The translations under genes and the position numbers were made by a program. A stretch of DNA of 64,000 nucleotides from Blastocatellia bacterium. GTDB lineage: Bacteria > Acidobacteriota > Blastocatellia > UBA7656. The notes beneath the pieces were generated by a model. It did not search any database and had not been told where the DNA came from. It was given only the letters and a program-made list of their open reading frames with translations. Shown one piece after another: positions 4,843-62,916 of this stretch. The stretch is taken from assembly GCA_963765495.1 (NCBI GenBank), contig CAVXWP010000001.1, forward strand, positions 480,001-544,000. Reading direction: 5' to 3'. Numbering within the stretch: the first letter of the stretch is position 1; the number at the start of each line of letters is the position of its first letter.

Positions 4843-5181
4843 AATATTGAAACCCCTCGTTAAATCAGAAAAAGTGGTTGCCTGATAATATCACGCGACA
4901 GCCGGACACAAAAAGTGGGGAGAGATGAGCTTGCAAGGGATGAGGTAGGATGAGATACCTCCGGGCCTGCCGCCTATACTATTCGAGCCGACGCGGCTCT
5001 ATTATTACACCAGCGCAAAGAGTTTTATCAAGCAGTACATGGCCAATCGATTTATCGGGAAGTGCTTTGAGCCGAAGGAGCAGCTTTCTTTGAGACCCGG
5101 CCTATTCCCATTTGCTTTCGGCTCAAAGTGATATTCAACACTGTTTATGTCGAATGCCGACGGATCAAAATTGAATAACTC

Positions 5182-6072: not shown

Positions 6073-6196
6073 AACAGAGCCTTATCCTGCATCTCGGTGC
6101 CGCTCGACTTACTTATAGCATATCTCATCAGCGGGCAGTAAGCCTTGCTCTTTCATCCGAGCGCCAATAGTTTATACTCGATGCGTAAAAAACTTA

Positions 6197-6249
6197 GACA
6201 GGATTAACAAGATTTTCTTTTAATCTTTTTGATTCTTGTTAATCCTGTC
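6197..6249. repeat. REP-like palindrome, family A
   Basis: GACAGGATTAACAAGA (6197-6212) / TCTTGTTAATCCTGTC (6234-6249). Confidence 0.85.
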
Positions 6250-6273
6250 AAAAAAATCCACTGGAGGACGTGA

Positions 6274-8382
6274 ATGAACAGGCCCATCAGGTACATTGTA
6301 CCGCTCTTGCTCGCGTTTATCGCCAACGGAATTTCGCTTACCGCTCTGGCATCAACACCAACTAATGAGGCGGCAACGCGGTTCTTCCCGGCAAAGGATT
6401 TGATGAGGATAGGCGTTTACTACTATCCCGAACACTGGCCCGCCGAGCAATGGGACCGCGACTTCGCAAAGATGGAAGCGATGGGATTTGAGTTTGTCCA
6501 CATGGCGGAATTTGCCTGGGCATTCATGGAACCGGAAGAAGGCAAGTTCGATTTCGCGTGGCTCGACCGGGCGGTAGAACTGGCCGCGCGCCATCACCTG
6601 CGCGTTATTCTTTGCACCCCGACTCCCTGTCCTCCCGCCTGGATGGCTGAAAAATACCCCGAGACTTTTCTTGTAGGCACAGACGGGCGGCGCAGGGAAC
6701 ACGGCTCGCGCGGCAACAACGCGCTTGCCGACCCTACTTATCTGCGGTTGAGCCAGCGCGTGATCACCGAGATGGCCCGCCGCTATGGTCGAAACCCTGC
6801 GGTCTGGGGCTGGCAGTTGGATAACGAGCCGATTGCTCAGCCCGATTACAGCCCTTCGTCCGAGCAGGCGTTCCGCAAATGGCTCGAAGCCCGCTACAAA
6901 ACCATCGATGTGCTGAACCGCGAATGGGGGGCGGCTTTCTGGAGCCTGAAATACAACAGCTTTGATCAGATACGCATTCCCAACCCGACTATGCTTTACG
7001 GTCCGAGCCCGCACGCCATCCTGGATTTCCGCCGCTTCACGGCTGACCAGACGGCGCGGTTTTTGAACTGGCAGGCCGGTCTGCTTCGCCGCGACACCGC
7101 GCCCGCTCAATGGATCACGACAAACTACATATCCAACATAGGCAGTGCCGACCCGCGCCGTTCGGATGCGCTCGACTTTATCTCTTTCACGATCTACCCG
7201 GTCAGCGGCGGCCACAATCTGGGCGAAGACGGATTCCGGCTCGGGTGGCAGGACGGAATCGCTTTCGCCGGACCTTTCTACAAACACATCAAAGGAGCTA
7301 CGGGCGTGATGGAGTTGCAGCCCGGTCAGGTGAACTGGGCGTGGGTCAATCCGCAGCCTATGCCCGGAGTCGTGCGTATGTGGCTCTGGCACGCCTTTGC
7401 CGCCGGGTGTTCTTTCGCCTCTCCTTACCGCTTCCGCCAGCCGCTCTACGGCAGCGAGCAATATCATTACGGCATAGTTGGTACGGATGGAGTGACGCCC
7501 TCGCCGGGCGGTCTGGAGTATCAGCAGGTAGCGCGTGAAATGGCTATGCTGCGGACGAAATACGATGCGGCCCGAAAGCCTCCGGCTGATTATCTTGCGC
7601 GCCGGACGGCCATCCTCTGGAATCACGAAAACCTCTGGAACATAGATCAGCAAAAACAGAGCGGCATGTGGGATACGTGGGGGCACATGTTCCGCTATCT
7701 GGAAAGCGCCCGATCCCTTGGCGCGCCGGTCGATTTCCCCTCTGAATCGGATGACTTTTCGGACTATCCGGTGTTGATAGCCCCGGCCTACCAGTTGATA
7801 GATGAAGAACTGGTTCGCAAGTGGACAAGGTATGTTGAGCAGGGCGGCCACCTCGTGCTGACCTGCCGCACGGGACAGAAGAAGCGCAACGGTCAGTTGT
7901 GGGAAGCGAAATGGGCCGAGCCTATTTATCCGTTGATCGGCGCTGAGATCTCCTTCTTCGATCTTCTGCTGAATGACGGCAAGGGAGAGGTCACGATGAA
8001 TTCCGCCACTTACCCGTGGAATGTCTGGGGCGAGGTTTTGAAACCGATGGCAGGTACGGAGGCGGTTGCCACCTATTCAAATCAATTCTACGCGGGACAG
8101 ACGGCGGTGACATATCACCGCCTCGGCAAAGGCAGCGTCACATATATCGGCGTGCACACAAAAGATGGAAGGCTCGAAAAAGAGGTGCTGCGCGAGGTCT
8201 ATAAACGGGCCGGAATCGGTGTAGAAGACTACCCGGAAGGCGTTTATGTAGACTGGCGCGACGGCTTCTGGGTCGGAGTGAATTATTCTTCGAGCCCTGC
8301 GGAAATCAAGCTGCCCGATAAGGCCGAAATTCTATTTGGAAGCCGGACCTTGAAACCCGCAGACGTGCTTGTGTGGAGATAA
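6274..8382 (+). CDS. Beta-galactosidase, glycoside hydrolase family 42, with signal peptide
   Basis: GVYYYPEHW, AEFAW, WQLDNEP (acid/base), MELQPG (nucleophile), GSEQYH; GGAGG RBS. Confidence 0.92.
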   Translation: MNRPIRYIVPLLLAFIANGISLTALASTPTNEAATRFFPAKDLMRIGVYYYPEHWPAEQWDRDFAKMEAMGFEFVHMAEFAWAFMEPEEGKFDFAWLDRAVELAARHHLRVILCTPTPCPPAWMAEKYPETFLVGTDGRRREHGSRGNNALADPTYLRLSQRVITEMARRYGRNPAVWGWQLDNEPIAQPDYSPSSEQAFRKWLEARYKTIDVLNREWGAAFWSLKYNSFDQIRIPNPTMLYGPSPHAILDFRRFTADQTARFLNWQAGLLRRDTAPAQWITTNYISNIGSADPRRSDALDFISFTIYPVSGGHNLGEDGFRLGWQDGIAFAGPFYKHIKGATGVMELQPGQVNWAWVNPQPMPGVVRMWLWHAFAAGCSFASPYRFRQPLYGSEQYHYGIVGTDGVTPSPGGLEYQQVAREMAMLRTKYDAARKPPADYLARRTAILWNHENLWNIDQQKQSGMWDTWGHMFRYLESARSLGAPVDFPSESDDFSDYPVLIAPAYQLIDEELVRKWTRYVEQGGHLVLTCRTGQKKRNGQLWEAKWAEPIYPLIGAEISFFDLLLNDGKGEVTMNSATYPWNVWGEVLKPMAGTEAVATYSNQFYAGQTAVTYHRLGKGSVTYIGVHTKDGRLEKEVLREVYKRAGIGVEDYPEGVYVDWRDGFWVGVNYSSSPAEIKLPDKAEILFGSRTLKPADVLVWR

Positions 8383-8414
8383 GGCAGCCCGCCAACGGCA
8401 GAAAAGCAAGTTGA

Positions 8415-8517
8415 AATAGGCCGGGACGGACGCGGATCGGGCGGATATACGCGGATCTGAAACCATATGATCTGATCCGCGTTGATCCGCCTAAATCCGC
8501 GTCCGTCCCGGCCTATT
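8415..8517. repeat. MITE/REP-like element, family B (AATAGGCC...GGCCTATT)
   Basis: Perfect 23-bp terminal inverted repeat AATAGGCCGGGACGGACGCGGAT / ATCCGCGTCCGTCCCGGCCTATT with internal CGGAT/ATCCG units. Confidence 0.9.
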
Positions 8518-8630
8518 GCCCTTCTCCAATCCATGCACTTTGAATTAACGCCTGCACATTCGCCCGCCGCGTTGACTTGGCGAGAGAAAGTTTATAACGT
8601 GATTTATGGGGACGTTCTTGAATTGAAAGG

Positions 8631-9560
8631 ATGAGAATGAAGATAGGCATATCGCTTCCGCAACTGGGGCCGCAGGCTTCGCCGGAAAATCTGATCCGCG
8701 TGGCCGAACGAGCCGAACAACTTGGATACGATTCCGTCTGGGTGCTCGAACGCTTGATGGTTCCGCTCAACCCGCAGGAACCTTATCCCGCATCACCCGA
8801 CGGGAAACTACCCGATACTTACAAGATAGTCTTTGATCCGATTGAAACGCTCACCTTCGTCGCCGCCCGCACAAGCAAAGTGCGGCTCGGCACAAGCGTA
8901 CTAGTTTTGCCTTACCACACGCCGATTGAGCTTGCGCGAAGGCTTGCCACACTCGATGTGCTTTCAAACGGGCGCGTCTCGGTAGGCGTGGGCGCAGGCT
9001 GGTCGCACGATGAATTTGAGGCCGTGGGAACTCCCTTTAATCGGCGCGGTGCGCGCAGCGACGAATTTCTTCAAGCGATGATCGACCTCTGGACCGATGA
9101 CCCCGTGAAATTCGACGGCGAGTTTTATCACGTCGCCGAAGCTTACGTAGGCCCAAAGCCCGTTCAAAAACCGCATCCGCCAATCTACGTGGCAGGCTTT
9201 GGCGATTTCGCGCTCAAGCGCGCAGTCAGGTACGGGAATGGCTGGAACCCTTCCGGCGTTCCAAATTTCGAATGGTTTGAAGCGATGCTCAAACAGCTTT
9301 ACGAGATCGCCGGGCGCGAAGGGCGCGAGACGCCCGAAGTCGTGGTGCGCGCGTTTACTCTTGTGCTCGACAAGGCAGCGGGCGAAGGTCGCGGAGTCAC
9401 TATGGGCAGCCTCGACGAGATCAAGCAGGACATAGGGCGTATGCGCGACCTCGGAGTGACCGAATTGATCCACTCCCCGCCTGAAATCGGTTTCACCGAT
9501 TCGCCCGACATCGAGCCGGGCCTGGCGCTGATGGAACGGTTGATTGAAATCTCGCGTTAA
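8631..9560 (+). CDS. LLM-class (luciferase-like) F420-dependent oxidoreductase
   Basis: AEQLGYDSVW, TSKVRLGTSVLVLPY, LATLDVLSNGR, PKPVQKPHPPIYVAG; adjacent to cofG/cofH. Confidence 0.9.
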   Translation: MRMKIGISLPQLGPQASPENLIRVAERAEQLGYDSVWVLERLMVPLNPQEPYPASPDGKLPDTYKIVFDPIETLTFVAARTSKVRLGTSVLVLPYHTPIELARRLATLDVLSNGRVSVGVGAGWSHDEFEAVGTPFNRRGARSDEFLQAMIDLWTDDPVKFDGEFYHVAEAYVGPKPVQKPHPPIYVAGFGDFALKRAVRYGNGWNPSGVPNFEWFEAMLKQLYEIAGREGRETPEVVVRAFTLVLDKAAGEGRGVTMGSLDEIKQDIGRMRDLGVTELIHSPPEIGFTDSPDIEPGLALMERLIEISR

Positions 9561-9565
9561 GAATT

Positions 9566-9613
9566 ACAGGACAGGAATCACAGGACAGGAATCACAGGGC
9601 AGGAGTCGCAGGC
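9566..9613. repeat. Degenerate 14-nt tandem repeat (ACAGGACAGGAATC)
   Basis: ACAGGACAGGAATC x2 followed by a degenerate copy, filling the LLM-PPOX spacer. Confidence 0.6.
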
Positions 9614-9623
9614 GGCGCTCGAT

Positions 9624-10052
9624 ATGGATGATAGAGTGCGAGAGTTTATAAGCAGTCACGCGGTTGCGCGGCTTGCAACCGTGGACGGCGACGGGCGGCC
9701 TACGGTCATACCCCTCTGCTTTGTGCTTGACGGCGATCACATCTATTCGCCTGTTGACGAGAAGCCGAAATCCGTAGCCCCCGCCCGGCTCAAGCGCGTT
9801 CGCAACATAGAGGCGAATCCGCACGTCTCGCTTGTGATAGACGACTATTCGGAAGACTGGAGCCAGCTTGCTTATGTGCTCGTAGGCGGGCTGGCCGAGA
9901 TCGTCAAGCCTGAGGATAACCCCACCGAGCGCGAGCGCGTCATCCGGCTGCTGCGCGACAAGTACACGCAGTATCGCTCGATGGCGCTCGAAAATCGGTT
10001 GCTGATAAAGATCACACCCATCAGAATAAAACAATGGAGCGCTCAACGGTAA
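9624..10052 (+). CDS. PPOX-class probable F420-dependent oxidoreductase (Rv0121-like)
   Basis: VARLATVDGDGRP, VDEKPKS, LKRVRNIEANPHVSLVIDDYSEDWSQL, KYTQY. Confidence 0.88.
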   Translation: MDDRVREFISSHAVARLATVDGDGRPTVIPLCFVLDGDHIYSPVDEKPKSVAPARLKRVRNIEANPHVSLVIDDYSEDWSQLAYVLVGGLAEIVKPEDNPTERERVIRLLRDKYTQYRSMALENRLLIKITPIRIKQWSAQR

Positions 10053-10054
10053 AA

Positions 10055-11251
10055 ATGATGGGGTCTCAAATCTCAAATCTCAAATCTCAAATCGGCTTTG
10101 ATCGAGCGTTAGCCGCTGCGCGTGAGGGCGAAATCACTCGCGAGATAGCCCTCACGCTTATAAGCGCGAGCGATGAAGAGAGGCTCGCCTCACTCACTCG
10201 CGCAGCCGCCGAGGTGCGAGATCATCTAAAAGGGCGGGTGATCAGCTTCTCAAAGAAAGTCTTCATACCGCTTACAAATCTGTGCCGTGACTATTGCGGC
10301 TATTGCACGTTTCGCAAGGACCCCGGGGATGCCGGCGCGCACACGATGACGCCCGACGAAGTGCTTGAGGTGGCCGAAGCGGGCGCGCGTCTCGGTTGCA
10401 AAGAAGCGCTCTTTAGTCTGGGCGACAGACCCGAAGCTCTCTTTCCCGAGATGCGCGAAACGCTTCGGCGACTCGGGCATCGCACTACGCTTTCATATCT
10501 GGCCGAGATGTGCGAGCGCGTATTGAATGAAACCGGATTGCTGCCGCACGCAAACCCCGGACTTTTGGGGCGACGCGATCTGGAATCGCTCAGACGCTCA
10601 AACCCGAGCGCGGGCCTTATGCTTGAAAACGTAAGCGAGCGCCTTACGCTTGCGGGGATGCCGCACGACAACGCACCCGATAAACGCCCCGCGCTCCGGC
10701 TTCGCACGATTGAAGAGGCGGGAAGATTGCGCGTGCCCTTTACCACGGGGATATTGATCGGTATAGGCGAGACGCTCGCCGAGCGGGTCGATTCGCTGTT
10801 TGCCGTTCTGGAATTGAATCGGCGCTATGGTCACATTCAGGAAGTGATCATTCAGAATTTTCGCGCAAAGCCGCTTATACCCATGCGCCATCATCCTGAA
10901 CCCGGCCTCGACGATCTCGCCCGTACAATAGCCGTAGCGCGGTTGATACTTCGAGATATGAACGTACAGGCTCCGCCCAATCTGTCGGATGATAATTACC
11001 CTTCGCTGATCGAGGCCGGATTGAATGACTGGGGCGGAATCTCTCCGCTCACGCCCGATCACATAAACCCCGAAAAACCCTGGCCGCACATCGAAGCCCT
11101 GCGCGATCACACCCGCGCGGCGGGCTACGAGTTGCGAGAGCGATTGAATATCTATCCCGAGTTTGTCTTTCGAGACGAGTTTCTCGATCCGAAGCTGGCG
11201 ACGCGCGTGCGCTCAATGGCAGACAAATCGGGTTATGCGAAAGTAAGTTAA
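10055..11251 (+). CDS. cofG: Fo synthase subunit CofG
   Basis: SKKVFIPLTNLCRDYCGYCTF, GCKEALFSLGDRPE, PHANPG, QAPPNL, NDWGGISP. Start placed at ATG 10055 (10058 is possible). Confidence 0.93.
   Translation: MMGSQISNLKSQIGFDRALAAAREGEITREIALTLISASDEERLASLTRAAAEVRDHLKGRVISFSKKVFIPLTNLCRDYCGYCTFRKDPGDAGAHTMTPDEVLEVAEAGARLGCKEALFSLGDRPEALFPEMRETLRRLGHRTTLSYLAEMCERVLNETGLLPHANPGLLGRRDLESLRRSNPSAGLMLENVSERLTLAGMPHDNAPDKRPALRLRTIEEAGRLRVPFTTGILIGIGETLAERVDSLFAVLELNRRYGHIQEVIIQNFRAKPLIPMRHHPEPGLDDLARTIAVARLILRDMNVQAPPNLSDDNYPSLIEAGLNDWGGISPLTPDHINPEKPWPHIEALRDHTRAAGYELRERLNIYPEFVFRDEFLDPKLATRVRSMADKSGYAKVS
10064..10093 (+). repeat. Heptamer tandem repeat (TCTCAAA)x4 inside the 5' end of cofG
   Basis: TCTCAAA x4 read directly; encodes SQISNLKSQI. 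Confidence 0.85.
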
Positions 11252-11303
11252 TCTCGTCAGGCAATTTTGTATTGCCTGCAAGACTTGTGAAAGGAGAGCA
11301 ATT

Positions 11304-11726
11304 ATGAAAGAACTTTCTACAAGCTTAAAAGAGTTTATCGAGAATCAAGAACTGATGCGAATCGCCTATACAGACAGCAAAGGGTTTCCGCGCGTCGTGC
11401 CTGTCTGGTATGTAGTGCTTGAAGACAATTACTACGTCGGCACATACAAGTCGAGCGCAAAGTGGAAAGCGATTGAGCAAGACTCGCGCATGGGCTGGGT
11501 CATAGATGGTGGGGAGGACTACAAATATAAAGGCGTTTCCAGGTACGGACACGCGGAAGAAGTGACTGATGCCGACCAGCGTGCTACCGTATACAACGCG
11601 CTGGGTGTAAAATATTTTGGCTCGACGGATGACCCAAATTTTCTTGAGATATACGGCCAGGTCGATAACCAGGATACGCTTTACATGCGGCTCAAGGAAG
11701 ATGGCGGCAATTCGTGGGAATATTGA
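11304..11726 (+). CDS. Pyridoxamine 5'-phosphate oxidase-like (split beta-barrel) protein
   Basis: MRIAYTDSKGFPRVVPVWY...SAKWKAIEQDSR...GVSRYG; AAAGGAG RBS. Confidence 0.75.
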   Translation: MKELSTSLKEFIENQELMRIAYTDSKGFPRVVPVWYVVLEDNYYVGTYKSSAKWKAIEQDSRMGWVIDGGEDYKYKGVSRYGHAEEVTDADQRATVYNALGVKYFGSTDDPNFLEIYGQVDNQDTLYMRLKEDGGNSWEY

Positions 11727-11734
11727 GAAAAGTC

Positions 11735-12934
11735 ATGGCGCAATCAATGAATGAATCCTGCGAGGGTGAATCGGGCGGACCCTCCATCAGTTTATCCGCG
11801 ATTGATCCTCGGATAGCTGACATACTCGACCGGGCGCTTGAGGGGGGCGAGCTAGACTTCGAAGACGGAGTGGCGCTCGCCCAATCAAGCGGGCCGGAAT
11901 TAGAGGCGCTCATACAAGCGGCCGACCATATCAGGCGCGAGCGCGTGGGCGATTGTATTACCTATGTCGTCAATCGCAATATCAACTTCACAAATATCTG
12001 CTTTGTAGGTTGCCGCTTCTGCGCCTTCAGCCGCGCGCCTCGTGAAAAGGATGCTTATTTTCACTCTTTCGAAGAGATCGGACGGCGATCACAGGAGGCC
12101 TGGGAACGCGGCGCGCGCGAGGTCTGCGTGCAGGGAGGGCTGCCTCGCGGGCTTGATCCTTTTTATTACCGCGATCTTCTCCGCGTAATCAAAGAGGCCA
12201 CGCCCGATATGCACATCCACGCATTTTCGCCTATGGAAATAGTCTACGGCGTAGAGTTGACCGGGATGAAGCTGGCCGATTATCTGCTGATGCTAAAAGA
12301 GGCGGGGTTGGGAACGCTCCCCGGCACCGCCGCTGAAATTCTGGATGATGATGTGCGCCATAATATCGAGCGCATAAAGCTGAAAGTTTCCGAATGGGTC
12401 GAAGTCATTCGTACCGCGCATGGCCTCGGCATCCCTACCACCTCAACGATGATGTACGGCCACACGGAGACACCCACACACTGGGTTCGGCATCTTTTGC
12501 TGTTGCGCGATATTCAAAAAGAGACGGGCGGTTTTACGGAATTTGTGCCGCTCGGATTCGTACACGAATTCACTCAGTTGTATAAATCCGGCGATGCGCG
12601 GCCCGGGCCTACGACCGAAGAGCATCTGAAGGTACACGCGCTTGCGCGATTGATGTTGAACGGATGGATAGACAACATACAGGTCTCGTGGGTGAAGCTC
12701 TCGCGCCAGATGGCGCAGGACTGTTTTCGCGCCGGAGCAAATGATTACGGCGGAACCTTGATGAACGAAAACATATCGAGGCTCGCGGGCGCAACCGCCG
12801 GAGAGTATCTGTCGCCTGAGGATTTTCACGAGCGCATACGCGAGCTTGGCCGTATCCCCGCCGAACGTACCACTACTTACAAAATAGTAAACATCTACGA
12901 CAACATCGCCGCGGACGCAAAGGCACAACAGTAA
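11735..12934 (+). CDS. cofH: Fo synthase subunit CofH
   Basis: VVNRNINFTNICFVGCRFCAF, HAFSPME, PGTAAEIL, TSTMMYGH, GGFTEFVPL, NIQVSWVK, GANDYGGTLMNENISR. Confidence 0.93.
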   Translation: MAQSMNESCEGESGGPSISLSAIDPRIADILDRALEGGELDFEDGVALAQSSGPELEALIQAADHIRRERVGDCITYVVNRNINFTNICFVGCRFCAFSRAPREKDAYFHSFEEIGRRSQEAWERGAREVCVQGGLPRGLDPFYYRDLLRVIKEATPDMHIHAFSPMEIVYGVELTGMKLADYLLMLKEAGLGTLPGTAAEILDDDVRHNIERIKLKVSEWVEVIRTAHGLGIPTTSTMMYGHTETPTHWVRHLLLLRDIQKETGGFTEFVPLGFVHEFTQLYKSGDARPGPTTEEHLKVHALARLMLNGWIDNIQVSWVKLSRQMAQDCFRAGANDYGGTLMNENISRLAGATAGEYLSPEDFHERIRELGRIPAERTTTYKIVNIYDNIAADAKAQQ

Positions 12935-53732: not shown

Positions 53733-55484
53733 TTACTTGAGCCACGCGTCGTCTATAACCGTGTCTACGGTGACGGGTATGCTGCTGATGAATTCGCGCG
53801 CTGCCGCAGTCATTTCGCGTTCCAGGATGGTTACGCATTCTTCGGCTTCGGCTTCGGCTACCTCGACCACTATTTCATCGTGTATGCAGTTGACTATCTG
53901 GGCGTCGAGCGGTTTGATTGCCTCGTAAAGAAGCGCGAGCGCGCGTTTGACAATATCGGCGCTGCTGCCCTGAATGGGCGCGTTCTTGCCGAGTCGCTGT
54001 GTAGCCGCCACCTGTGAGCGTTCGTTCTGATCGAATTCGAAATATATCAAACGGCCTGAACGCGTGCGGCTCTTGCGATCGCGAACGGCTCGCCCGGCTG
54101 CCTCGCGCAGCCACGCGGCAACCCCGCTATAGGCCGCGAAGTACTTTCGTATCAATTGCTCGGCCTGCTCCGCCGAACAGTCAATACGCGCCGCCAGCCC
54201 TTGCGCGCCCAGCCCGTACATTATTCCGTAATTAAGTTGTTTGGCCGCCGCGCGCTGGTCTTTCGATACACTCTCAAGCGGAATCGCAAACATCTGGCTG
54301 GCAGTAACGCAATGCAAATCTTCGCCCGACATAAGTGCTTTCACAAGAGCCGTATCCTGAGACCAGTCGGCCAGTATTCGCAACTCTATTTGAGAGTAAT
54401 CGGCAATCGCAAGCTTGCGGCCCGAAGGGGCGTGAAAGCACCCGCGGTATTCGGGAGTGTTTGGCACCTGTTGAAGGTTGGGATTCGAGCAACTCATCCT
54501 GCCGCCGGTCGCTCCAATCTGGCGGAAGTCCGCGTGGATGCGCCCCGTTTCCGGGTGAATGTGTTCGAGCATCGGAAGCCCGTAGCTGCTCAAGGATTTC
54601 TGCACGCTTCGGTATTCGAGCAGTTTTGCAATCGCCGGATGCTCTTTGGCGAGCGGCTGAAGCTGCCAGTTTCGCGTGCCTTCGACCTTGATGCCTATGC
54701 GCGAGAGCGCTTCTACTATTTGCGCGGGGCTGTCGAGGTTGATGTCCGGGTCGCCGAACAGAGTGAGTTGCGGCACCCCGGCCGCAAGCTCGCTCTTAAG
54801 ATCGGATGAAAGGATTTCGTGCGCTCGCTCGACATCGCCCACGAGCCGCCGCCAGCAATCTTTATCAATCGCCATCCCGGCAAGCTCCATAGCCGATAGC
54901 GGCAACACGCAGTCGAATTCAAGTTTAGCCGCCTCCATCAGGTCGTGCTCTTCAAGCTCTTCGATGAGCGACTCTCGCAGAGGCAACATCAAGGCAGCGT
55001 CCTTGGCCGCATACTCGTATTGTATTTCGGCAAGCTCACCTGACCAGTCGCTCGCCTGCATAGCCTTATCCACAGGCTGATTTAAAAAGCGCTCGGACAC
55101 CGCAGCAAGGGCGTGTCCGCCTTCGCTGCGGCCTCCGCCGATCAACTGGCTTGCAAGCATCGTGTCGAATATCCCTCGCACTTCAATATCGAAGTGATGC
55201 ATCAGCATCTTCAAATCGAATTTCGCATTGTGCAGAATCTTTGTTATGCGGGCCGCTGTCATCAGCTCGCGTAGTCCCGCGTGATCGAATGCTGAAAGCC
55301 GAAACAGGTCTATGACAAAGTTTCGCTCAGGCGTAGATATTTGCGCCAGCCGCACACGACTCGTGAGCGGGTCAAGCCCGGTTGTTTCCGTATCCAACCC
55401 TATGGCTGAATAATTTGCTATGTGTATAACGGCTTCTTCCAGAGCCGTCTCAGTGGTGACCAACGTGAAAGGTGTTTTACTCAC
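53733..55484 (-). CDS. Second family A DNA polymerase: 3'-5' exonuclease plus polymerase, no 5' nuclease
   Basis: ExoI DTETTG, ExoII HNAKFD, ExoIII YAAKD; motifs DYSQIELR, KQLNYGIMYG, IHDE. Confidence 0.92.
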   Translation of the reverse strand: MSKTPFTLVTTETALEEAVIHIANYSAIGLDTETTGLDPLTSRVRLAQISTPERNFVIDLFRLSAFDHAGLRELMTAARITKILHNAKFDLKMLMHHFDIEVRGIFDTMLASQLIGGGRSEGGHALAAVSERFLNQPVDKAMQASDWSGELAEIQYEYAAKDAALMLPLRESLIEELEEHDLMEAAKLEFDCVLPLSAMELAGMAIDKDCWRRLVGDVERAHEILSSDLKSELAAGVPQLTLFGDPDINLDSPAQIVEALSRIGIKVEGTRNWQLQPLAKEHPAIAKLLEYRSVQKSLSSYGLPMLEHIHPETGRIHADFRQIGATGGRMSCSNPNLQQVPNTPEYRGCFHAPSGRKLAIADYSQIELRILADWSQDTALVKALMSGEDLHCVTASQMFAIPLESVSKDQRAAAKQLNYGIMYGLGAQGLAARIDCSAEQAEQLIRKYFAAYSGVAAWLREAAGRAVRDRKSRTRSGRLIYFEFDQNERSQVAATQRLGKNAPIQGSSADIVKRALALLYEAIKPLDAQIVNCIHDEIVVEVAEAEAEECVTILEREMTAAAREFISSIPVTVDTVIDDAWLK

Positions 55485-55629: not shown

Positions 55630-55719
55630 TGCGTGATCCGTGATTCGTGACCTTTAGGGAACCCGTTTGTAAATGACAAGTTAAAGCCTGCCAAATCACG
55701 GATCACGCATCACGAATCA
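55630..55719. repeat. ATCACGV heptamer inverted array overlapping the mscS stop
   Basis: GCGTGATCCGTGATTCGTGA ... AATCACGGATCACGCATCACGAATC. Confidence 0.78.
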
Positions 55720-57037
55720 ATTCAGCAGGTTTAACGCGTTTCTGAAAGCCTTTTCTCGCCCTCTCGATTGTATCGCTTCGCAACTCGCGCTCATACTGCA
55801 CGTCAAACACATAGGCCGTCACAACGAGCTTTGTGACAGGCTCGTTTCTGTATTCCTCGTCCACCTGCACTTCAATTGGCTTGTTGATGTAAACATAAGG
55901 CGAGATGGCTACCGCCTCGTAGGCTATTCTCTTGCCTTCTTCGATATCGATATCAGCAGGCAAGAGCAATTCCGTAGTGACCTGGCTTTCAATCGCGCCC
56001 GAATTTGAATTGGAGACAGGCGAGCGCGCCACATCGGAGTTGGGAATCGCAACTACGGACCCGTCCGGCGACAACAGGTGAAAAGCCCTCAGACCTATTC
56101 GCAGCACTTCGCCCTGATGGTTGCCGATCTTTATCCGGTCGCCGATTTGAAAGGGTCTTTCAAGCAGAATTACCATCCCGCTTATGATGTCTCTGAGCAG
56201 TTGTTGTGAGCTAAAGATCAAAGCCACCGCTGCCAGAACAAGCAGGACAACGATGGCCGCCGCCGAATTGGCAAAGATGCCGACGACCGCCGTTATTGCC
56301 AGAAACCACCATCCAAAACTTACAAACGGGATGGCTCTGCGCAGCCATAACGTCTGATCTTTTCTGCGCCCGGCTATTCGATTCAAGACAAGCACGAGCG
56401 CCTTGTGCACAAGGTAAAAGAATCCAAGAGTGAGCAGAGCTAAGATAATTGCCCTGAACGAGAATGACCCTGTAAGCTTTTCAATCTCTTCGACGATCTT
56501 TTTTTGAATCCCTTCGACTTCTCCGTCTTTCGGCTCGGGCCGGGCAACCGTCGGTTGCGTTTGCGGCTCGGGCTCAAGTGCAGGCGGCTCGGCCGGTTGT
56601 GTTTGAGTTTGAGGCTGCGCGGCAGGTGGCTCTGGTTGTTGAGTCTCGGCAGGACTTTCATTAGCAGGACGTTCATCAGCAGGATTTTCACTCCGAGGCT
56701 GACTGCTCTCTTCTTGCGGCCTTTCGGGCGCGGGGCTTATTGTCTGCTGCGGCACAGGCGGGGGAGGCTCTGCCGGAGCCTGCTTTTGAACTGTGGGCGC
56801 GGGTTTTTGGGGCGCGGGTTTTTGGGGCGCGGGTTTTTGGGGCGCGCTTTGTTCGGGCTGTTTCGGTGTTTGTTTTTCGACCTGCTCGGGTAGGGGAGGT
56901 TCAGGTCCTGGTTTTTCCTGTTTTTGCTGATGGCCAATGCGGGCCGCCATGCTTTTCCCAAAGCAGGTCGACCCTGCCAGGCAAATCATACCCAGAAGTA
57001 AAAGGGATAAAATGTGTCTGAAAACTCTGGTCATCAA
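55703..57037 (-). CDS. MscS-family mechanosensitive channel with Pro/Gln-rich N-terminal extension
   Basis: DIISGMVILLERPFQIGDRI, GEVLRIGLR, IPNS; signal-like N-terminus and QKPAP x3. Confidence 0.88.
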   Translation of the reverse strand: MMTRVFRHILSLLLLGMICLAGSTCFGKSMAARIGHQQKQEKPGPEPPLPEQVEKQTPKQPEQSAPQKPAPQKPAPQKPAPTVQKQAPAEPPPPVPQQTISPAPERPQEESSQPRSENPADERPANESPAETQQPEPPAAQPQTQTQPAEPPALEPEPQTQPTVARPEPKDGEVEGIQKKIVEEIEKLTGSFSFRAIILALLTLGFFYLVHKALVLVLNRIAGRRKDQTLWLRRAIPFVSFGWWFLAITAVVGIFANSAAAIVVLLVLAAVALIFSSQQLLRDIISGMVILLERPFQIGDRIKIGNHQGEVLRIGLRAFHLLSPDGSVVAIPNSDVARSPVSNSNSGAIESQVTTELLLPADIDIEEGKRIAYEAVAISPYVYINKPIEVQVDEEYRNEPVTKLVVTAYVFDVQYERELRSDTIERARKGFQKRVKPAELIRDA

Positions 57038-60000
57038 TGTAACATGTTCCGGGTTCGCAGTTCTTTTGCTAGAGGAATATAAATAACACGGTTTACGGCA
57101 AACTGCTCCTGGCCGTCATCGCGGATTTCTTTGACCAGCAAATTTATGTTAGTCAGGTATGTCAGGGTCGAAAGGCTCGATGTTCGGTCGGTCCCAAAGA
57201 CATCGGCATGCTCGCCCGCCGTCAGGCTCCCGTGCTGGATTATCATGCTCAGGGTCAGTAGTTTTTTAACGTGCATGTCTGAGAGGAAATCGAATCTCAA
57301 TCGTTCGAGCGGTTTGATTATAAGCTCGTTCCCCTGGACGTCTGCGATGGACTTCAGCCAGTAAAAAATGGCCGCCAGAGAGTTTCCCTCGGTCGCCCTG
57401 CTCAGGTCTTCAAAGTATTCTCTTCTTATCATCTCCTGCTGTTTGTCGGCTGAAGCCTTGCGATACTTTTTCTTTTGCTCGATAACCTCGTCGGGCAGAA
57501 ATCTCAAATCGAATCCGCTGACCTTGTGCCGCGAAAGAATGACCTCTTCGAGTTGCGCGGGCGTCAGGTTTTCCGTGTTGACCACGAAAGTGAAATGATC
57601 CGAGATGTGAAGTACTTCATCCAGATAGAGCCAGCCGAATTTCCTCATCGAGATCACCCACAGCACCTGATGGCTCGTGGCGGCGACGAGCAGCAACAGT
57701 TTTCTCATCCCTTCGAATCCGCCAAGCGCGCGGAGGTAAAGTTGATGCGCGTCTTCGAGCACGACGACGGTTCGCTGCGCCATCTCGCCGAGCCGCTCGT
57801 GTATTTCATCAAAACTCTCAGCGCCTGTTATGCCCAGAATCGCCGCAAGCTCCGCAACCATTTCCCGCTCGCTCACGACCGTGGATTTGAACTCTTTTCT
57901 GTAAACCGGATAATCGCCCAGCACATGTTTGATCAGCGAATTTATAAAACTGGTCTTTCCGCTTCCAAGCTCGCCGATTACCGCCACGGCGCAATGCATG
58001 CCCTGTTGCCACCTCTTGCGGGCAGTCTCGACCATCTGCAATTCCTGCTCGCGAGCCACGAGAAAATCGCCCGCCTCGAGCGGGGCTATGTCAAACAAAC
58101 GCTGATAGATGAACGGCAGGTTTTTGATTACGCCTTTATCCAGCCTCGCCTGATCGTAGATGGCAAGAATTTCCGAGGGCGTGAATTGTTGAAGCCCCAG
58201 ACTGCTTTTAAGGTCTTTGACTACCTCCTGGCTGATCGGTCTGTATCTGGCGACAATCGCCCCGGAGTTTCTTCCCATCCATTCAAATAATTGCGTTACG
58301 AGGCGCGAAGCTCGGGCCAGAAATTGCCTCTGCTTCAGCCGCACCTGAATGTCGAATGAGGTGCGTTTCAAGACCAGAGTCTCGAAATCTCTCATCCGCT
58401 CGTCCACCTGCGCGATTATCTTTTCATATACCTGATTCTTTAACTGGATTATTCTTTCCAGAGTCGATTCCATCCTGTTTATCGCCCGCTCGATGCCGCC
58501 AAGCGACAACTCTTTCAAACGCGCGGTATCTTCCTCGCCATACTCACCCGGCGTAAGATTGTCGAGTACTTCCAGACAGGTCTTGAGGTTGAAGTTGACT
58601 ATCCTGTAACCGTCGGTCACCGCGCGGATCGTTTCATCCACCTGCTCGAACATGATGCGGTTGACATTGGCCAGATCGCGCGCGATTTCCGTCTCAAGGT
58701 AAGAGCGTGTGATCTCTTGCATAGGCACGATCTTCAAATCCACTCGGGGCGGAGCGAGGCCGTCGGTTCTGTTTAATGCAAGTTCTTTTTCATCGAGCAC
58801 AAGACAATTGACCGGCGCTTGGTCGGCAAGCGTTGAAAATCTCTTGAGCATCACTTCGATCAGCGCATTCAATTCCCGGCTTTCGCGCACGCGAGTCAGA
58901 TTCTCAAGCGTGCCGTTTTGCACGAAGGCAGTGAGGGCTTCGTGTTGACTTGCGATCTCGGTTTTCAAAGTGGCGATGGAGTGATTCGAGTCGAAGACCC
59001 GGACGAGTTGCTGGCGGCTCCCTTCGCATTGAGCTTTCGTAGCGCGAATCCCGGTCACAAGCTTTTCGTCAATGCTTTCAAGCACGTCATAGACTATCTC
59101 ATCAACCGTCCGACTGACGTTATCCATCAGGATCACGACTTCGATGTGTTTTGCATAAGCGCCTGCCGAGCCTGTTTGATAGTTCTGCCAGATGTCGAAT
59201 GATTGGGCTATGAGCTTGCGCGCCTTCTCTCTTGCTTCGTACACCTTCGAGAAGCGAAACCTGCGCGAAGGTAATTCGAAGGTTCCGGCTGTTTCCAGGT
59301 CTTTCAAAAAGGCTGAATAAGCGACCGAGAACGCCAGTCTCATCTGTCGCCTGATGTCGGCGCTATAATTATCGAGGTCATCCGATACTGCGCGGAAATC
59401 CGCGTCCAGATTGCGGCAGACCTCTTCAAGGCTCCGAGCCGCCTCAGATTCGCTTACCGCTCCCGTTTCGAGCGCGTTTATTTGCGATTCGTATTTTTCG
59501 TCAATCTTTTTGTAAAGCGCCTGACTCCGTTCGAGGGCAAACAACGGCTCCGCGCCCAGGAGGTTTGCCGTTTTCGGCAATTCGGGCAGCAGAAGTCCCG
59601 CGAAATAATATCTGGCCAGTCGCCTGAATTGAATGGTTCGCCTCAAATCAGACCGCGCACCGAACACCCTGCGGATCATCTTGTATCCTCGTTTTAGCCG
59701 CTTGCGCGATCTGACATAAAACGAATCGCCCTCGGCGCTCAGAAGCCTTTCCGGCTCCTGAACGACTGAAATAGTTCCTTCGCTCGCTTCCGAAAGAGCG
59801 TCGAGCGCGGCAAGCAGTTCAGCGAATCCTGTCTTCGGGTTTTCGGCGCTGACTTCGGTCGTTTGCCGATAAATCTCTTTCGACAGCACTCGGGAAAAGA
59901 TGATCCGGCTCTCTCGAAAAACATCTATCATCCTTCTCGGTTCGTTGACGGACAGGGCTTCTTTCCTGAGCGCTGAGACGGCCTTTAAGCATTCCTCTCG

Positions 60001-61569
60001 CGTAGCGGATATAAAGCTCTGCCAGTTTGCGGTCTGCGGATCGAGGGTCGTTTGCTCGAAATTGCGTTGCAAACCCAGCAGCCCTTCGCGCAGCCCGAGT
60101 GCCGCCCTGTTCAATTCATCCGATGCAAAGCGAGGCAGGTGGAAACGCGCTTCATCAGACGGCGAAACACTTATAATCGGCTCATCGCCTGTGATATCGC
60201 TTGTGAAATTGACTGTGATATCGCTTACGGCAGGGATTATGACAGCCTCATCGCCCGTGGCGGCGGATTCGTCGATCCTGTCGCGCTGTTCTCTGGTTTC
60301 GCCTGCGCGCGCAAGAGCCAGTTTGAAGGCGACGGGGCCGAGCATGAGGTTAAAGCCTATGGTTCCGAGTACGATGGTCTTTATCTCTGACCCGATGCCC
60401 GGCAGATTGCGTTCGACTATGATGGCGAGTCCAAGCACAACGCCCGCCTGCGAGATAAAACTCAGCCACGCGTTCTGCTCTATTTTTGGCGGCTCGCCCG
60501 CAATCTTTACGGCCAGTCGCGTGCCCGCGAAAATCGCGATTACGCGCACGACGACAAGCGCCAGAGCGATGAGCGCCACCTGCCTGAGCGCGTTCAGGTC
60601 CAACCCCGCACCGGCTATCGAAAAGAAGACTACATAGACCGGCAGAGAGACCTCCTCTACCGGGTGGATAAACTCATCACCAAAACGCGAGAGGTTCTGG
60701 ACCACGAATCCGGCGGCGATGAACATCAAAAGCGCTTCGAGATGAAATCGCGTGGCGGCAGTCGTAGCCACAAAGATCAGGGCTACGATAAAGAGCCACA
60801 TCTCTGCGTGTACGAATCGGATGTAGGCGATGATGATGCCGCCAAGCAAGACGCCCGCAAGGATTGAAAGCAGCAATTCTTCGCCTACGTTTAAGAGTAT
60901 ATGCGGGTCAAATGTCGCGCCTTCGGTCGAAAACAGACTCGCAAGCGACATGGCAATCGCAAGCAGTATGACCATCACCACATCTTTAGCCACCGCCGCG
61001 CCCAGCGTGATGTCGCTCAACCTGCCCTTTGATTCGGTCTCGTTTATGACGGCGATGGTCGCCGCCGGGGAAGTGCCTACGGCAAGCACGCCGAAAATCA
61101 TCCCCACAGAGAGAGTAAGCGGAACGCTTGCGCCTCCGAGAAAAGGTATAAATGAACGTATGGCAAAGACGGTCCCCGAAACGGCGATCAGGATCAGCAA
61201 TCCTTTTATCAGCACGATGAGCGAGAGGCTTTTCGCCACCGCTTTTAGCCCGCTCATCTTCATCTCTGCCCCCGCCGTGAGCGCGATAAGCCCTATTGCA
61301 AGGCTGTTGATGAGCGTCAGGTCTTCGACTACTTTTACCGAAAAAAGGTCTATGACGTAAGGGCCGAACATCACGCCCGTGATGATATAGCCTGTGATCT
61401 TTGGCAGACTGATAGAGTTTGTGATCTCTCCGAAGGTATAGGCGGCGAGCAGAACAAATCCAAGCGTAGCGAGCGATTTCGGATGCAGAGGCGTATCGAC
61501 CTCGACCTGCAGGAATTGCAGGGCGTACATCAACAGAAAGAGCAATCCTATTATGAGGACTCGTCGCAT
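57034..61569 (-). CDS. Cation:proton antiporter domain fused to a long helical region and a C-terminal P-loop ATPase/winged helix (1511 aa)
   Basis: Residues 1-420 form a CPA (LPKITGYII.G..FGP, TSPAATIAV, FFSIAGA.L, SQAGV); FLVAREQEL, GELGSGKTS, VVVLEDAH. Confidence 0.85.
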   Translation of the reverse strand: MRRVLIIGLLFLLMYALQFLQVEVDTPLHPKSLATLGFVLLAAYTFGEITNSISLPKITGYIITGVMFGPYVIDLFSVKVVEDLTLINSLAIGLIALTAGAEMKMSGLKAVAKSLSLIVLIKGLLILIAVSGTVFAIRSFIPFLGGASVPLTLSVGMIFGVLAVGTSPAATIAVINETESKGRLSDITLGAAVAKDVVMVILLAIAMSLASLFSTEGATFDPHILLNVGEELLLSILAGVLLGGIIIAYIRFVHAEMWLFIVALIFVATTAATRFHLEALLMFIAAGFVVQNLSRFGDEFIHPVEEVSLPVYVVFFSIAGAGLDLNALRQVALIALALVVVRVIAIFAGTRLAVKIAGEPPKIEQNAWLSFISQAGVVLGLAIIVERNLPGIGSEIKTIVLGTIGFNLMLGPVAFKLALARAGETREQRDRIDESAATGDEAVIIPAVSDITVNFTSDITGDEPIISVSPSDEARFHLPRFASDELNRAALGLREGLLGLQRNFEQTTLDPQTANWQSFISATREECLKAVSALRKEALSVNEPRRMIDVFRESRIIFSRVLSKEIYRQTTEVSAENPKTGFAELLAALDALSEASEGTISVVQEPERLLSAEGDSFYVRSRKRLKRGYKMIRRVFGARSDLRRTIQFRRLARYYFAGLLLPELPKTANLLGAEPLFALERSQALYKKIDEKYESQINALETGAVSESEAARSLEEVCRNLDADFRAVSDDLDNYSADIRRQMRLAFSVAYSAFLKDLETAGTFELPSRRFRFSKVYEAREKARKLIAQSFDIWQNYQTGSAGAYAKHIEVVILMDNVSRTVDEIVYDVLESIDEKLVTGIRATKAQCEGSRQQLVRVFDSNHSIATLKTEIASQHEALTAFVQNGTLENLTRVRESRELNALIEVMLKRFSTLADQAPVNCLVLDEKELALNRTDGLAPPRVDLKIVPMQEITRSYLETEIARDLANVNRIMFEQVDETIRAVTDGYRIVNFNLKTCLEVLDNLTPGEYGEEDTARLKELSLGGIERAINRMESTLERIIQLKNQVYEKIIAQVDERMRDFETLVLKRTSFDIQVRLKQRQFLARASRLVTQLFEWMGRNSGAIVARYRPISQEVVKDLKSSLGLQQFTPSEILAIYDQARLDKGVIKNLPFIYQRLFDIAPLEAGDFLVAREQELQMVETARKRWQQGMHCAVAVIGELGSGKTSFINSLIKHVLGDYPVYRKEFKSTVVSEREMVAELAAILGITGAESFDEIHERLGEMAQRTVVVLEDAHQLYLRALGGFEGMRKLLLLVAATSHQVLWVISMRKFGWLYLDEVLHISDHFTFVVNTENLTPAQLEEVILSRHKVSGFDLRFLPDEVIEQKKKYRKASADKQQEMIRREYFEDLSRATEGNSLAAIFYWLKSIADVQGNELIIKPLERLRFDFLSDMHVKKLLTLSMIIQHGSLTAGEHADVFGTDRTSSLSTLTYLTNINLLVKEIRDDGQEQFAVNRVIYIPLAKELRTRNMLH

Positions 61570-61588
61570 ACTTTTTTCTTAGAGGCGA

Positions 61589-62836
61589 TCACGCCGCCTT
61601 GATCTCTTCGGCGTCAACGAGCAGAGATTTCGTCAGCCGGGGGCTTAAAAATTCGTTTATGATGACCGAAACGAGCACCGCGCTTACCACCAGATTTGTG
61701 AACTGATTCTGATATACCTGCTGATAGTTGACCGTCATGGCGACGGCTACGCCGCCCTGCGATAAAAGCCCCAGACCTGTGTGACGTGCAAGCCTGTCGG
61801 GATGTTCCGATGTGGCATAGGCTATCGAGCCGCCGATATATTTGCCCAGATAACGCAGCAGGAAATATCCGGCGATAAGCCCCGCGTTTACGTACCATCG
61901 TCTGCCGTAAGGCACCTGCCAGGCCGCGCCTGCAAATACCAGCAACACGACGTAGAAAGGCTTTTCGATTGAGTGAAGAACCTCCAATAGCTGGTTTCTG
62001 ATCCTGGATGTGTTGGCAAGCATAATGCCGAGCACAAAATTGATGAACAGGGGCGACAGGTTCAGGTAATAGGCCGCGCCGCTTGAAAAGACCACGATGC
62101 CGATCAATGCGAGCAGCAGCTTTTGCCTGCTCTGTTCGCGGCCCAGAAAAAGATAAAAGAGCGAGCCCAGAAGGATGCCGAAAGTTATATTGACTGCCAC
62201 CCATTCGGTTCTGGTCAAAGGCCTTATGCCGCTGGTCTCTCCTATGTGAAAAATGCAGAAGACGAACCCGAACAGTATAATACCCAGTAACTCGTCAAAC
62301 CTGACGGCAAACTGCAACAGGTCCGAGATGTTGCCGCTTGCGTTGTAATGATTCTTCACGACTCTAATAGCAGTCGGGGCCGATACGGCTCCCGTAGCTC
62401 CCATAACCACCGCGCTTGAAAAGACCGCAAAGATCCTTTCCTGTCCGCTCAGACTGCCTGAGAGTAAGTACCACAGGACCAGAGCAAAGGCTCCGCCAAG
62501 CAAGAGGAATGTGACGAGCGATTCGGTTAGGGCTACGCGGTAGAATTCCATGTTGATGCGGCCCATCTCTCGAAAGCGAACCTGCAAGCCCACGAGAAGT
62601 CCTATCGAACCTATAGCCAGGCTCATGATCGGGCCTAGCTGACCGACGACTTCGCGCGTCATCACGCCCGTGACATACGGCCCGACCAGCACGCCCAGGA
62701 TTATGTATTCGATACCTGATGTGAAAAAGAGACGGCTTTGGAGTTTACCGATCAAGAAATGGGCGCTCAGATACCCGACGGCCAGGATAGTTATGAATTG
62801 AATTATTGTAATAATAGCCATGATCTTTGATACCAT
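61589..62836 (-). CDS. Cation:proton antiporter family protein
   Basis: About 12 TMs; EYIILGVLVGP, LSPLF, IEKPFY, LLSQGGVAVA. Confidence 0.85.
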   Translation of the reverse strand: MVSKIMAIITIIQFITILAVGYLSAHFLIGKLQSRLFFTSGIEYIILGVLVGPYVTGVMTREVVGQLGPIMSLAIGSIGLLVGLQVRFREMGRINMEFYRVALTESLVTFLLLGGAFALVLWYLLSGSLSGQERIFAVFSSAVVMGATGAVSAPTAIRVVKNHYNASGNISDLLQFAVRFDELLGIILFGFVFCIFHIGETSGIRPLTRTEWVAVNITFGILLGSLFYLFLGREQSRQKLLLALIGIVVFSSGAAYYLNLSPLFINFVLGIMLANTSRIRNQLLEVLHSIEKPFYVVLLVFAGAAWQVPYGRRWYVNAGLIAGYFLLRYLGKYIGGSIAYATSEHPDRLARHTGLGLLSQGGVAVAMTVNYQQVYQNQFTNLVVSAVLVSVIINEFLSPRLTKSLLVDAEEIKAA

Positions 62837-62916
62837 GAAAGATGGCTGTCAGCCGCCGAGAAGCGCGCGCTTATCAGTGATTGCATTCTGTCAGCGACCA
62901 GCCGAGAGCGTCAAGT

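Follow-up and report, generated by a model that had tools for sequence, protein, structure and literature searches.

A putative ion-flux module pairing a predicted ORC/Cdc6-type AAA+ ATPase with a dedicated clade of MscS-family channels in a Blastocatellia bacterium and other lineages

Here we examine a three-gene operon of a Blastocatellia bacterium, located in a stretch of 64,000 nucleotides of its genome (hereafter the window; GenBank assembly GCA_963765495.1, contig CAVXWP010000001.1, positions 480,001 to 544,000 of the forward strand). The operon consists of three open reading frames (ORFs) on the minus strand: P0001, a divergent membrane protein of the CPA superfamily (CPA-A; 61589..62836, 415 residues, ATG start); P0002, in which a second CPA domain (CPA-B) is joined to a helical stalk, an AAA+ ATPase and a winged helix (57034..61569, 1511 residues, ATG start); and P0003, an MscS-family protein (55703..57037, 444 residues). 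Comparison across three phyla establishes that the conserved core of this system is the ATPase together with a dedicated clade of MscS proteins, and that the CPA part is an optional N-terminal fusion. We propose, in a reading that we consider about equally likely to be right or wrong, that the core acts as a nucleotide-switched module for the release of ions or osmolytes.

Key to this proposal is the regularity with which the two genes are neighbours. Loci were picked in three phyla by ATPase similarity alone and then scored for MscS as a direct neighbour, and 72 of 73 had one immediately next to the ATPase gene, down to ~22-25% ATPase identity. The paired genes share a strand and are mostly a few hundred nucleotides apart, sometimes with gaps of 2-5 nucleotides or overlaps of 4 nucleotides, and such stop/start overlaps imply that ATPase and channel are co-translated stoichiometrically. 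In the window's own phylum, MscS lies directly downstream in 9 of the 10 other genomes carrying the module. In the phylum of a Rhodothermales genome (G402) it is adjacent in all of the 30 best loci, in 6/6 short ATPase-only forms (399-433 residues by longest ORF, two of them called at 298 residues from a later start), in four further fused forms, and in 4/4 further loci where it is found upstream of the ATPase instead; in the phylum of a KSB1 genome (G401) it is adjacent in 11/11 full loci. The rest of the tally comprises the window, L004, L005, L007, L008, L037, L039 and L011, the last being a paralogous locus of the same genome, where P0051, a soluble protein of 941 residues with a helical part, AAA_16 and a winged helix (32% identical to P0002 over the ATPase), is directly followed by the MscS-like P0052. 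Left out were loci in which the contig breaks off before the ATPase gene is complete at its 3' end (L006, L009, L010), fragments (L042, L120, L121), repeats of counted loci (L034-L036, L038, L040, L041, L043, L103) and distant SLC12-fused forms (L080, L081). An earlier note on this DNA, made from the sequence alone, had proposed an NTPase partnered with an MscS channel, and at the level of genes that partnership is borne out; of the two companions that it suggested looking for beside the ATPase, the MscS clade proved nearly constant and the paired CPA proteins did not.

An apparent fusion of MscS and ATPase genes at L082/L083 was discarded on finding the MscS match in another frame than the long ORF; these are adjacent genes with MscS upstream. 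Separately, the KSB1 genome has a 238-residue ORF ~7.5 kb upstream of its fusion gene (L042/L121, G401:C102:16799-17473, and L004 1-381). It matches the first ~160 and the last ~64 positions of the ATPase profile only, followed by a partial MscS match, as if a deletion had left behind part of a second ATPase-MscS pair.

The channel partners also group together phylogenetically. A quick IQ-TREE maximum-likelihood tree of 66 MscS proteins united all 57 ATPase-adjacent sequences in one clade (SH-aLRT 100, stem length 3.02) and left outside it 9 non-adjacent paralogues, a small set that tblastn searches with the partners had retrieved from these genomes and loci. On this tree the MscS partners appear as a monophyletic, dedicated clade, within which those of CPA-fused ATPases form a sub-clade. 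The window's member, P0003, is by its domain content an MscS-family channel: it scores 70.6 bits on PF00924 (MS_channel_2nd; cut-off 20.2) and 74.7 bits in the genome scan, and it is composed, in order, of a signal-peptide-like N-terminus, a Pro/Gln-rich low-complexity region of ~180 residues, three predicted transmembrane (TM) helices, the beta domain and a short C-terminal domain. Neither PF21088 (TM2/TM3 pore helices) nor PF21082 (C-terminal alpha-beta domain) matched P0003 at E<=0.1; PF21088 does match the paralogue P0052, and PF21082 is missing from P0003, P0052 and the MscS of L085. When P0003 was aligned with 33 partner MscS proteins, a TM3-like segment and a C-terminal domain of ~90 residues were present in all 34. 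The N-terminus of P0003 (residues 1 to ~180, window 56500-57037) carries the motif PQKPA three times within the Pro/Gln-rich region. Similar N-terminal extensions, predicted to be periplasmic, occur on the MscS partners at five other CPA-fused loci (L004, L005, L007, L008, L037), and the extensions on the partners of stand-alone ATPases are much shorter.

Within the window, the three genes are a real, conserved operon. A gap of 19 nucleotides (61570-61588) separates the stop of gene 1 from the ATG of gene 2, confirming from the ORF list and a reading of the junctions the co-oriented arrangement that had been described, and the overlap previously reported between genes 2 and 3 likewise stands, with small corrections to its letters (given as ATGA) and its position (given as 57034-57037). 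On the minus strand this junction reads CAT-TGA-TGA-CC, with the TGA stop of P0002 at 57036-57034, and P0003 may start either at an ATG (57034-57032, a 1-nucleotide overlap with the P0002 stop) or at a TTG (57037, a 4-nucleotide overlap). The arrangement is also syntenic elsewhere: CPA-A lies upstream in 11 of the 12 fused-form loci having upstream sequence, the exception being L010, and MscS lies downstream in every fused-form locus having downstream sequence, which agrees with the view that the three genes form one unit.

The fusion itself is widespread. A word-indexed search with the 1511-residue protein returned 47 matches, one of which (P0004, 100% identical, 1498 residues) is the window's own protein; of the 46 others, 33 cover at least 95% of the query at lengths of 1468-1517 residues, and their source names include KSB1, Acidobacteriota, Ignavibacteria and Rhodothermales, among others. 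With full-length homologues in several phyla, the fusion is not unique to this assembly, and we judge it to be real and old, not an assembly artefact. An exhaustive search with residues 440-1511 of P0002 detected 2911 representatives at E<=1e-3 and 959 at E<=1e-30, with lengths of ~1000-1030 residues where there is no membrane domain, ~1470-1510 residues in CPA-fused forms, and a few longer. Of six longer relatives scanned with Pfam, five have PF00999, and P0118 (1817 residues) has CarboxypepD_reg-type matches under the cut-offs. Stand-alone ATPases of ~1000 residues and short ones of ~430 residues are commoner than the CPA-fused form in the two other phyla sampled. A tree of 40 of the 58 fused and 45 of the 107 stand-alone proteins (20 short ones were left out) recovered a stand-alone clade of 36 rows (SH-aLRT 98) and several fused clades and needs at least 6-7 label changes, from which no number of fusion events was drawn. 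Database names for ten relatives were only 'hypothetical' or 'ATP-binding protein', the ESM Atlas clusters retrieved with P0094, a homologue of P0051, were only 'hypothetical' or 'ATP-binding', and a metagenome neighbourhood scan based solely on Walker A and B patterns confirmed no relative.

At two loci the fusion is naturally divided. In L007, ORFs of 763 residues (7256-9547) and 736 residues (9574-11784), the second starting from an ATG, are separated by 27 nucleotides, and L008 is split likewise; the division falls at about residue 776 of P0002, just past the near-invariant AGTFELP hairpin tip of the stalk, as would be expected for parts of one complex. L008 is labelled 'uncultured Heliomicrobium' and is nearly the same locus as L007 from Blastocatellales, which suggests that its bin label may be wrong.

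The catalytic part of P0002 (residues ~1150-1511; 57037..58122, minus strand) is predicted to adopt an ORC/Cdc6-type fold. Its AlphaFold2 (AF2) model comprises an AAA+ base, a lid and a winged helix (pLDDT 88.3), the winged helix occupying residues ~1427-1506 (57052-57291, minus strand). Foldseek matched the model to Cdc6/ORC structures at E 1.8e-10 to 1e-8 (1.8e-10 to 5e-9 for full-length alignments to Cdc6/Orc1) and to the archaeal AAA+ proteins 2fna and 2qen; VIA placed Cdc6 foremost (7jgr_G, Z 16.1; 2qby_A, Z 15.6), with TnsC, BrxC, RFC, MalT, NLR and Avs proteins somewhat lower; and the family profile matches ORC4 at E 3.9e-6. Pfam scores for P0002 are just below cut-off for AAA_16 (29.6 bits against 32.6) and AAA_22 (24.4 bits), and the paralogue P0051 reaches 32.9-33.1 bits on AAA_16. 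The nucleotide-binding motifs appear intact and conserved. Walker A (GELGSGKTS, G1199-S1207; 57949..57975, minus strand) has G1199, G1202 and G1204 invariant and K1205 in at least 90% of 30 homologues, Walker B (VVVLEDAH, V1268-H1275; 57745..57768, minus strand) has E1272 in at least 90%, and the lid helix has R1347 invariant and H1348 in at least 90%; both Walker motifs and the lid Arg persist in relatives down to ~20-25% identity. FLVAREQEL and both Walker motifs named in the earlier note are present in the translation, Walker A at precisely the position given there, and the domain plan that it read (a CPA domain, ~700 residues of helical sequence, a P-loop module and a winged-helix-like end) finds support in the PF00999 scan and the AF2 models. 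Its naming of the ATPase as STAND/AAA-like does not hold up as well: the fold is ORC/Cdc6-like, and the protein ends five residues past the winged helix with no C-terminal sensor repeat of the TPR, WD40 or LRR type found by Pfam, and for these two reasons we do not regard it as a typical STAND protein. Two relatives, P0064 and P0090, do pass the nSTAND1 model (29.2 and 29.3 bits, cut-off 27.1).

Between the membrane domain and the ATPase, a linker predicted to be disordered (residues 430-472) leads into a stalk of residues ~484-1124 (58198..60120, minus strand), modelled by AF2 as an antiparallel bundle of helices 54-88 residues long with small beta tips (pLDDT 88.6, pTM 0.80). Foldseek found no PDB match to the 701-residue model, searched whole, at E<=1e-3. 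VIA returned generic or designed helical bundles only, led by designed proteins at Z 14.7 and with BAR, flagellin and bacterial dynamin scoring Z ~10, and given how generic these matches are, no homology was drawn from them.

The CPA domains of the operon are degenerate or atypical at the predicted ion-binding site. CPA-B (residues 1 to ~435 of P0002; 60265..61569, minus strand) scores 88.8 bits on PF00999 in the genome scan; hmmscan on the full 1511-residue protein did not list PF00999 and gave for this part TIGR00932 only, at 34 bits against a cut-off of 238. CPA-A scores 50.2 bits on PF00999 by hmmscan and 52 bits in the genome scan, the weakest of the seven CPA-family loci in this 7.3-Mb genome, which also has ten MscS-family loci. 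Both CPA domains exceed the PF00999 cut-off with these scores. At 88.8 and 52 bits, compared with 193-254 bits for the others, the operon's two CPA domains are by far the most divergent of the seven. Neither P0001 nor P0002 matched the RCK/KTN domains PF02254 (TrkA_N) or PF02080 (TrkA_C) at E<=0.1, in agreement with what had been noted before. CPA transporters have an N-D, D-D or Q-D ion-binding motif in TM5, the Asp of which is essential for transport. Alignment of CPA-B to MjNhaP1 (4czb, E 3.4e-4) sets TDPAT against TSPAAT and FND against AKD, which backs the TM5 register, and a MAFFT alignment of seven CPA-B sequences, eight CPA-A sequences and the five canonical CPAs of the genome allowed the motif to be compared. 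The canonical proteins read FND, ISD, FQD, LND and IDD. CPA-B has [KR][DE] in 7/7 aligned sequences (AKD or VKD, plus LRE and SKE in two orthologues), and CPA-A reads RFD in the window, keeping F-D, and has the Asp replaced by N or Q in 5/8 (LNQ, KMN, LIN, YLN, FLN). Given this atypical site, the pair may act as a modified transporter, as a heterodimer of which one half is dead, or as a sensor or scaffold, and the heterodimeric antiporter previously suggested is doubtful, with K-D in CPA-B and many CPA-A orthologues lacking the TM5 Asp.

The N-terminal part of the ATPase is variable, consisting of no transporter, a CPA domain or an SLC12 domain, and this variability and the genes nearby point to a role in the homeostasis of K+ or other ions. 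TrkA and TrkH are encoded between CPA-A and the fusion in L004, L006, L009 and L106, and a CNNM/CBS gene, extra canonical MscS genes, a canonical CPA gene and CitMHS-TrkA_C transporters occur near the module in L004, L007, L024 and L026. An SLC12 domain of the KCC/NKCC type (KCC4 7d99, E 8.5e-64) precedes a long middle region and AAA_16 in a 1672-residue protein of L080 (2701-7719, plus strand), followed by a 238-residue ORF (7731-8447, plus strand) with a marginal PF00924 match (21.1 bits). A sister family of ~1300 residues (P0035-P0039) belongs to the CPA-B clade, being 59-62% identical over the CPA domain, and ends after a linker of ~640 residues in a six-TM Ion_trans/Ion_trans_2 K+-channel domain, the K+ channel here replacing the ATPase. 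Bacteroidota-type loci are flanked, in conserved order, by housekeeping genes (amidase, uridine kinase, pantothenate kinase, SDR). As side observations, L081 encodes a protein of 1668 residues (2275-7281, plus strand) that was grouped with L080 as a distant SLC12-fused form, the domain scan having covered L080 only; the CitMHS-TrkA_C transporters are found repeatedly near the module (L007, L024); and upstream of a stand-alone ATPase-MscS pair, L026 (1162-6211) encodes a canonical MscS, an HtrA-like PDZ protease, a separate CPA protein and an LRR protein.

In the mechanism that we propose, the ATPase, in an ATP- or ADP-dependent state, would bind the cytoplasmic cage of the MscS-type channel and set or override its gating. 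In the window's subfamily the stalk of ~640 residues would tether the ATPase to the divergent, CPA2-like CPA-B, encoded beside the more degenerate CPA-A, and fused forms would thereby couple the channel switch to a K+-type transporter (the CPA pair in the window, SLC12 in another lineage), and TrkA-TrkH are often encoded within the operon. The module could then release or balance K+ or osmolytes for turgor and ion homeostasis under nucleotide control that replaces the usual control by RCK/KTN domains. The physical binding of ATPase and channel, the direction of control and the ion carried are what we infer from these patterns. A more specific version, which we regard as possible and rather doubtful, has a ring of the ATPase docked under the heptameric MscS cage to give an ATP-switched channel, with the stalk coupling it mechanically to K+ transporters (the CPA pair or SLC12); if true, this would represent a prokaryotic 'volume-regulation hub' and the first class of AAA+-gated ion channels.

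Several considerations weigh against the proposed function. The ion specificity is a guess from genomic context. The CPA domains deviate at the ion-binding site and so may not transport at all. The distribution is patchy, with the module found in 11/401 genomes of the window's own phylum, 69/351 of the phylum of G402 and 13/167 of the phylum of G401. At one locus, L024, the sole exception to the pairing, NadA takes the place of MscS and a CitMHS-TrkA_C transporter lies divergently upstream. Moreover, AAA+ proteins with winged helices resembling ORC, Cdc6, TnsC and BrxC typically work on DNA, STAND relatives serve in immunity, and we know of no ATPase of the ORC/Cdc6/STAND type that gates a channel.

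Other explanations of the same gene pair can be given. By analogy with ORC/Cdc6, DnaC and the clamp loaders, the ATPase might spend ATP on assembling, inserting, remodelling or removing the heptameric MscS ring (or the transporter dimer) and take no part in acute gating. The closeness of the fold to Cdc6/ORC, TnsC and RFC-type loaders is in keeping with such a role, and 1:1 gene pairing with tight translational coupling would fit a dedicated partner; permanent fusion to a transporter, however, suggests a stable complex and not a transient chaperone, no membrane-channel loader of this type is known to us, and we consider the explanation unlikely. Alternatively, the ATPase with its winged helix might be a nucleotide-dependent, DNA-binding transcription factor of the MalT kind that would control the adjacent mscS gene and make no protein contact with the channel. 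AAA_16 joined to a DNA-binding domain is the plan of MalT/LAL proteins (MalT 8bob, VIA Z 13.2), and the winged helix has weak profile matches to MarR/SmtB-type repressors (E 0.012-0.034). Against this, many lineages have the ATPase joined covalently to polytopic membrane transporters, the stop/start overlaps imply that the two proteins are co-translated stoichiometrically, and the MscS partner has diverged as a dedicated clade, which would not be expected of a merely regulated target; regulation of this kind seems to us improbable. That the two genes adjoin by chance or local history alone is scarcely credible: nothing beyond the single exception at L024 speaks for it, the synteny counts across three phyla and down to ~22-25% ATPase identity contradict it, and the 7.3-Mb genome has only ten MscS genes.

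A further alternative is anti-phage defence or abortive infection, in which an ORC/STAND-like NTPase would sense an invader and open MscS or CPA effectors, depolarising the cell, a possibility already raised in the earlier note as a membrane-depolarising sensor-effector. Some relatives reach nSTAND1 or NACHT models (P0064 and P0090), VIA lists Avs, NLR and BrxC proteins at Z 12-14, the module is patchily distributed among taxa, and this genome carries two paralogues of it. In PADLOC-DB 2.0, however, nine family proteins gave nothing better than E 1e-3, the best match being mad8 at E 0.0034-0.0044 over the P-loop region only, and the MscS and CPA-A proteins gave no match; a tblastn search with the ATPase module through 72,556 plasmids and 50,697 phage records found nothing; the neighbours are housekeeping genes in conserved synteny; the operon contains TrkAH and other ion transporters; and past the winged helix there is no C-terminal sensor repeat domain. 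The main text of an eLife 2020 survey of NTP-dependent conflict systems (PMC7159879) contains none of the terms 'MscS', 'mechanosensitive', 'antiporter' or 'ion channel'. Housekeeping neighbours, TrkAH within the operon and the lack of PADLOC, plasmid and phage matches thus disfavour this reading, which we rate as having a small chance of being correct.

The nucleotide-switched module that we favour has partial counterparts among known systems. Nucleotide-regulated ion-flux modules are a known kind. bCNG channels are MscS-like and bind cyclic nucleotides, and the MscS-family protein PamA of Synechocystis binds PII. The operon resembles these in that a cytoplasmic, nucleotide-related regulator goes with a pore and beta domain of MscS type (PF00924), and differs in that the partner is a separate or transporter-fused ORC/Cdc6-type AAA+ ATPase of 430-1500 residues, with no cyclic-nucleotide domain or PII, and in that the MscS partners form their own clade with a C-terminal domain not recognised by Pfam (P0003, P0052, L085). 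KefC and KefB are CPA2 proteins with a KTN domain and ancillary KefF/G proteins, and TrkH-TrkA is likewise RCK/KTN-regulated. Here too a CPA2-like or K+-transport membrane part is found with a cytoplasmic nucleotide-binding module, and TrkA-TrkH sit within several of the operons; unlike in Kef, however, an RCK/KTN domain is missing from both CPA genes, the nucleotide module being an AAA+ ATPase carried on a long stalk of helices, and the TM5 ion-site motif of CPA-B is K-D, not Q-D or D-D.

With ORC/Cdc6 and the archaeal Arch_ATPase proteins (1fnn, 2qby, 2fna, 2qen) the ATPase shares the AAA+ base, lid and C-terminal winged helix and an F-x-x-R-E-x-E-L motif ahead of Walker A; it differs in being only 12-18% identical to them, in its attachment to membrane transporters and in its pairing with an MscS gene, and the genomic context argues against a role in replication. 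STAND conflict systems (Avs, NLR-like, nSTAND) have a similar AAA_16-type P-loop, and if the operon served defence its membrane proteins could be effectors, but the C-terminal TPR/WD40/LRR array and a PADLOC match are missing and the surroundings are those of housekeeping and ion transport. A functional analogy, by inference, may also be seen with the eukaryotic KATP channel, in which Kir6 is associated with the ABC ATPase SUR: in both, channel activity would be set by an attached NTPase reading the nucleotide state, although the protein families are unrelated.

All components of the operon belong to known families, and as far as our searches go there is no description of an ORC/Cdc6-type AAA+ protein partnered with a dedicated clade of MscS proteins. 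Literature searches, which covered search listings and one term search, gave no description of an AAA+/MscS pair or of CPA-AAA+ fusions, and with the generic database names this agrees with the earlier note's view that the operon is not a characterised system. MscS channels are the textbook case of gating by membrane tension alone, and CPA2 and Trk systems that of nucleotide control through RCK/KTN domains. The proposed module would control channels and transporters in a new way and give the initiator-type AAA+ fold a new task, within a family that is large (2911 representative clusters) and whose sub-lineages fuse the ATPase to CPA or SLC12 domains. The short two-gene form, an ATPase of ~430 residues with an MscS of ~310 residues, is small enough for biochemistry, patch-clamp and cryo-EM, which makes the proposal immediately testable.

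Finally, a promoter-like site upstream of gene 1 (62885..62914, minus strand; TTGACG-18-CAGAAT, with TG ahead of the -10 hexamer) was located by a consensus scan that returned 8 sites where 4.7 were expected from shuffles, and is therefore a weak candidate. A divergent gene starts on the plus strand at 63115, and a family-A DNA polymerase gene lies downstream of the operon; neither is kept beside the operon at other loci. This polymerase (583 residues; 53733-55484, minus strand) is on the same strand as the operon, 218 nucleotides downstream, and has a 3'-5' exonuclease domain and no 5'-nuclease domain.

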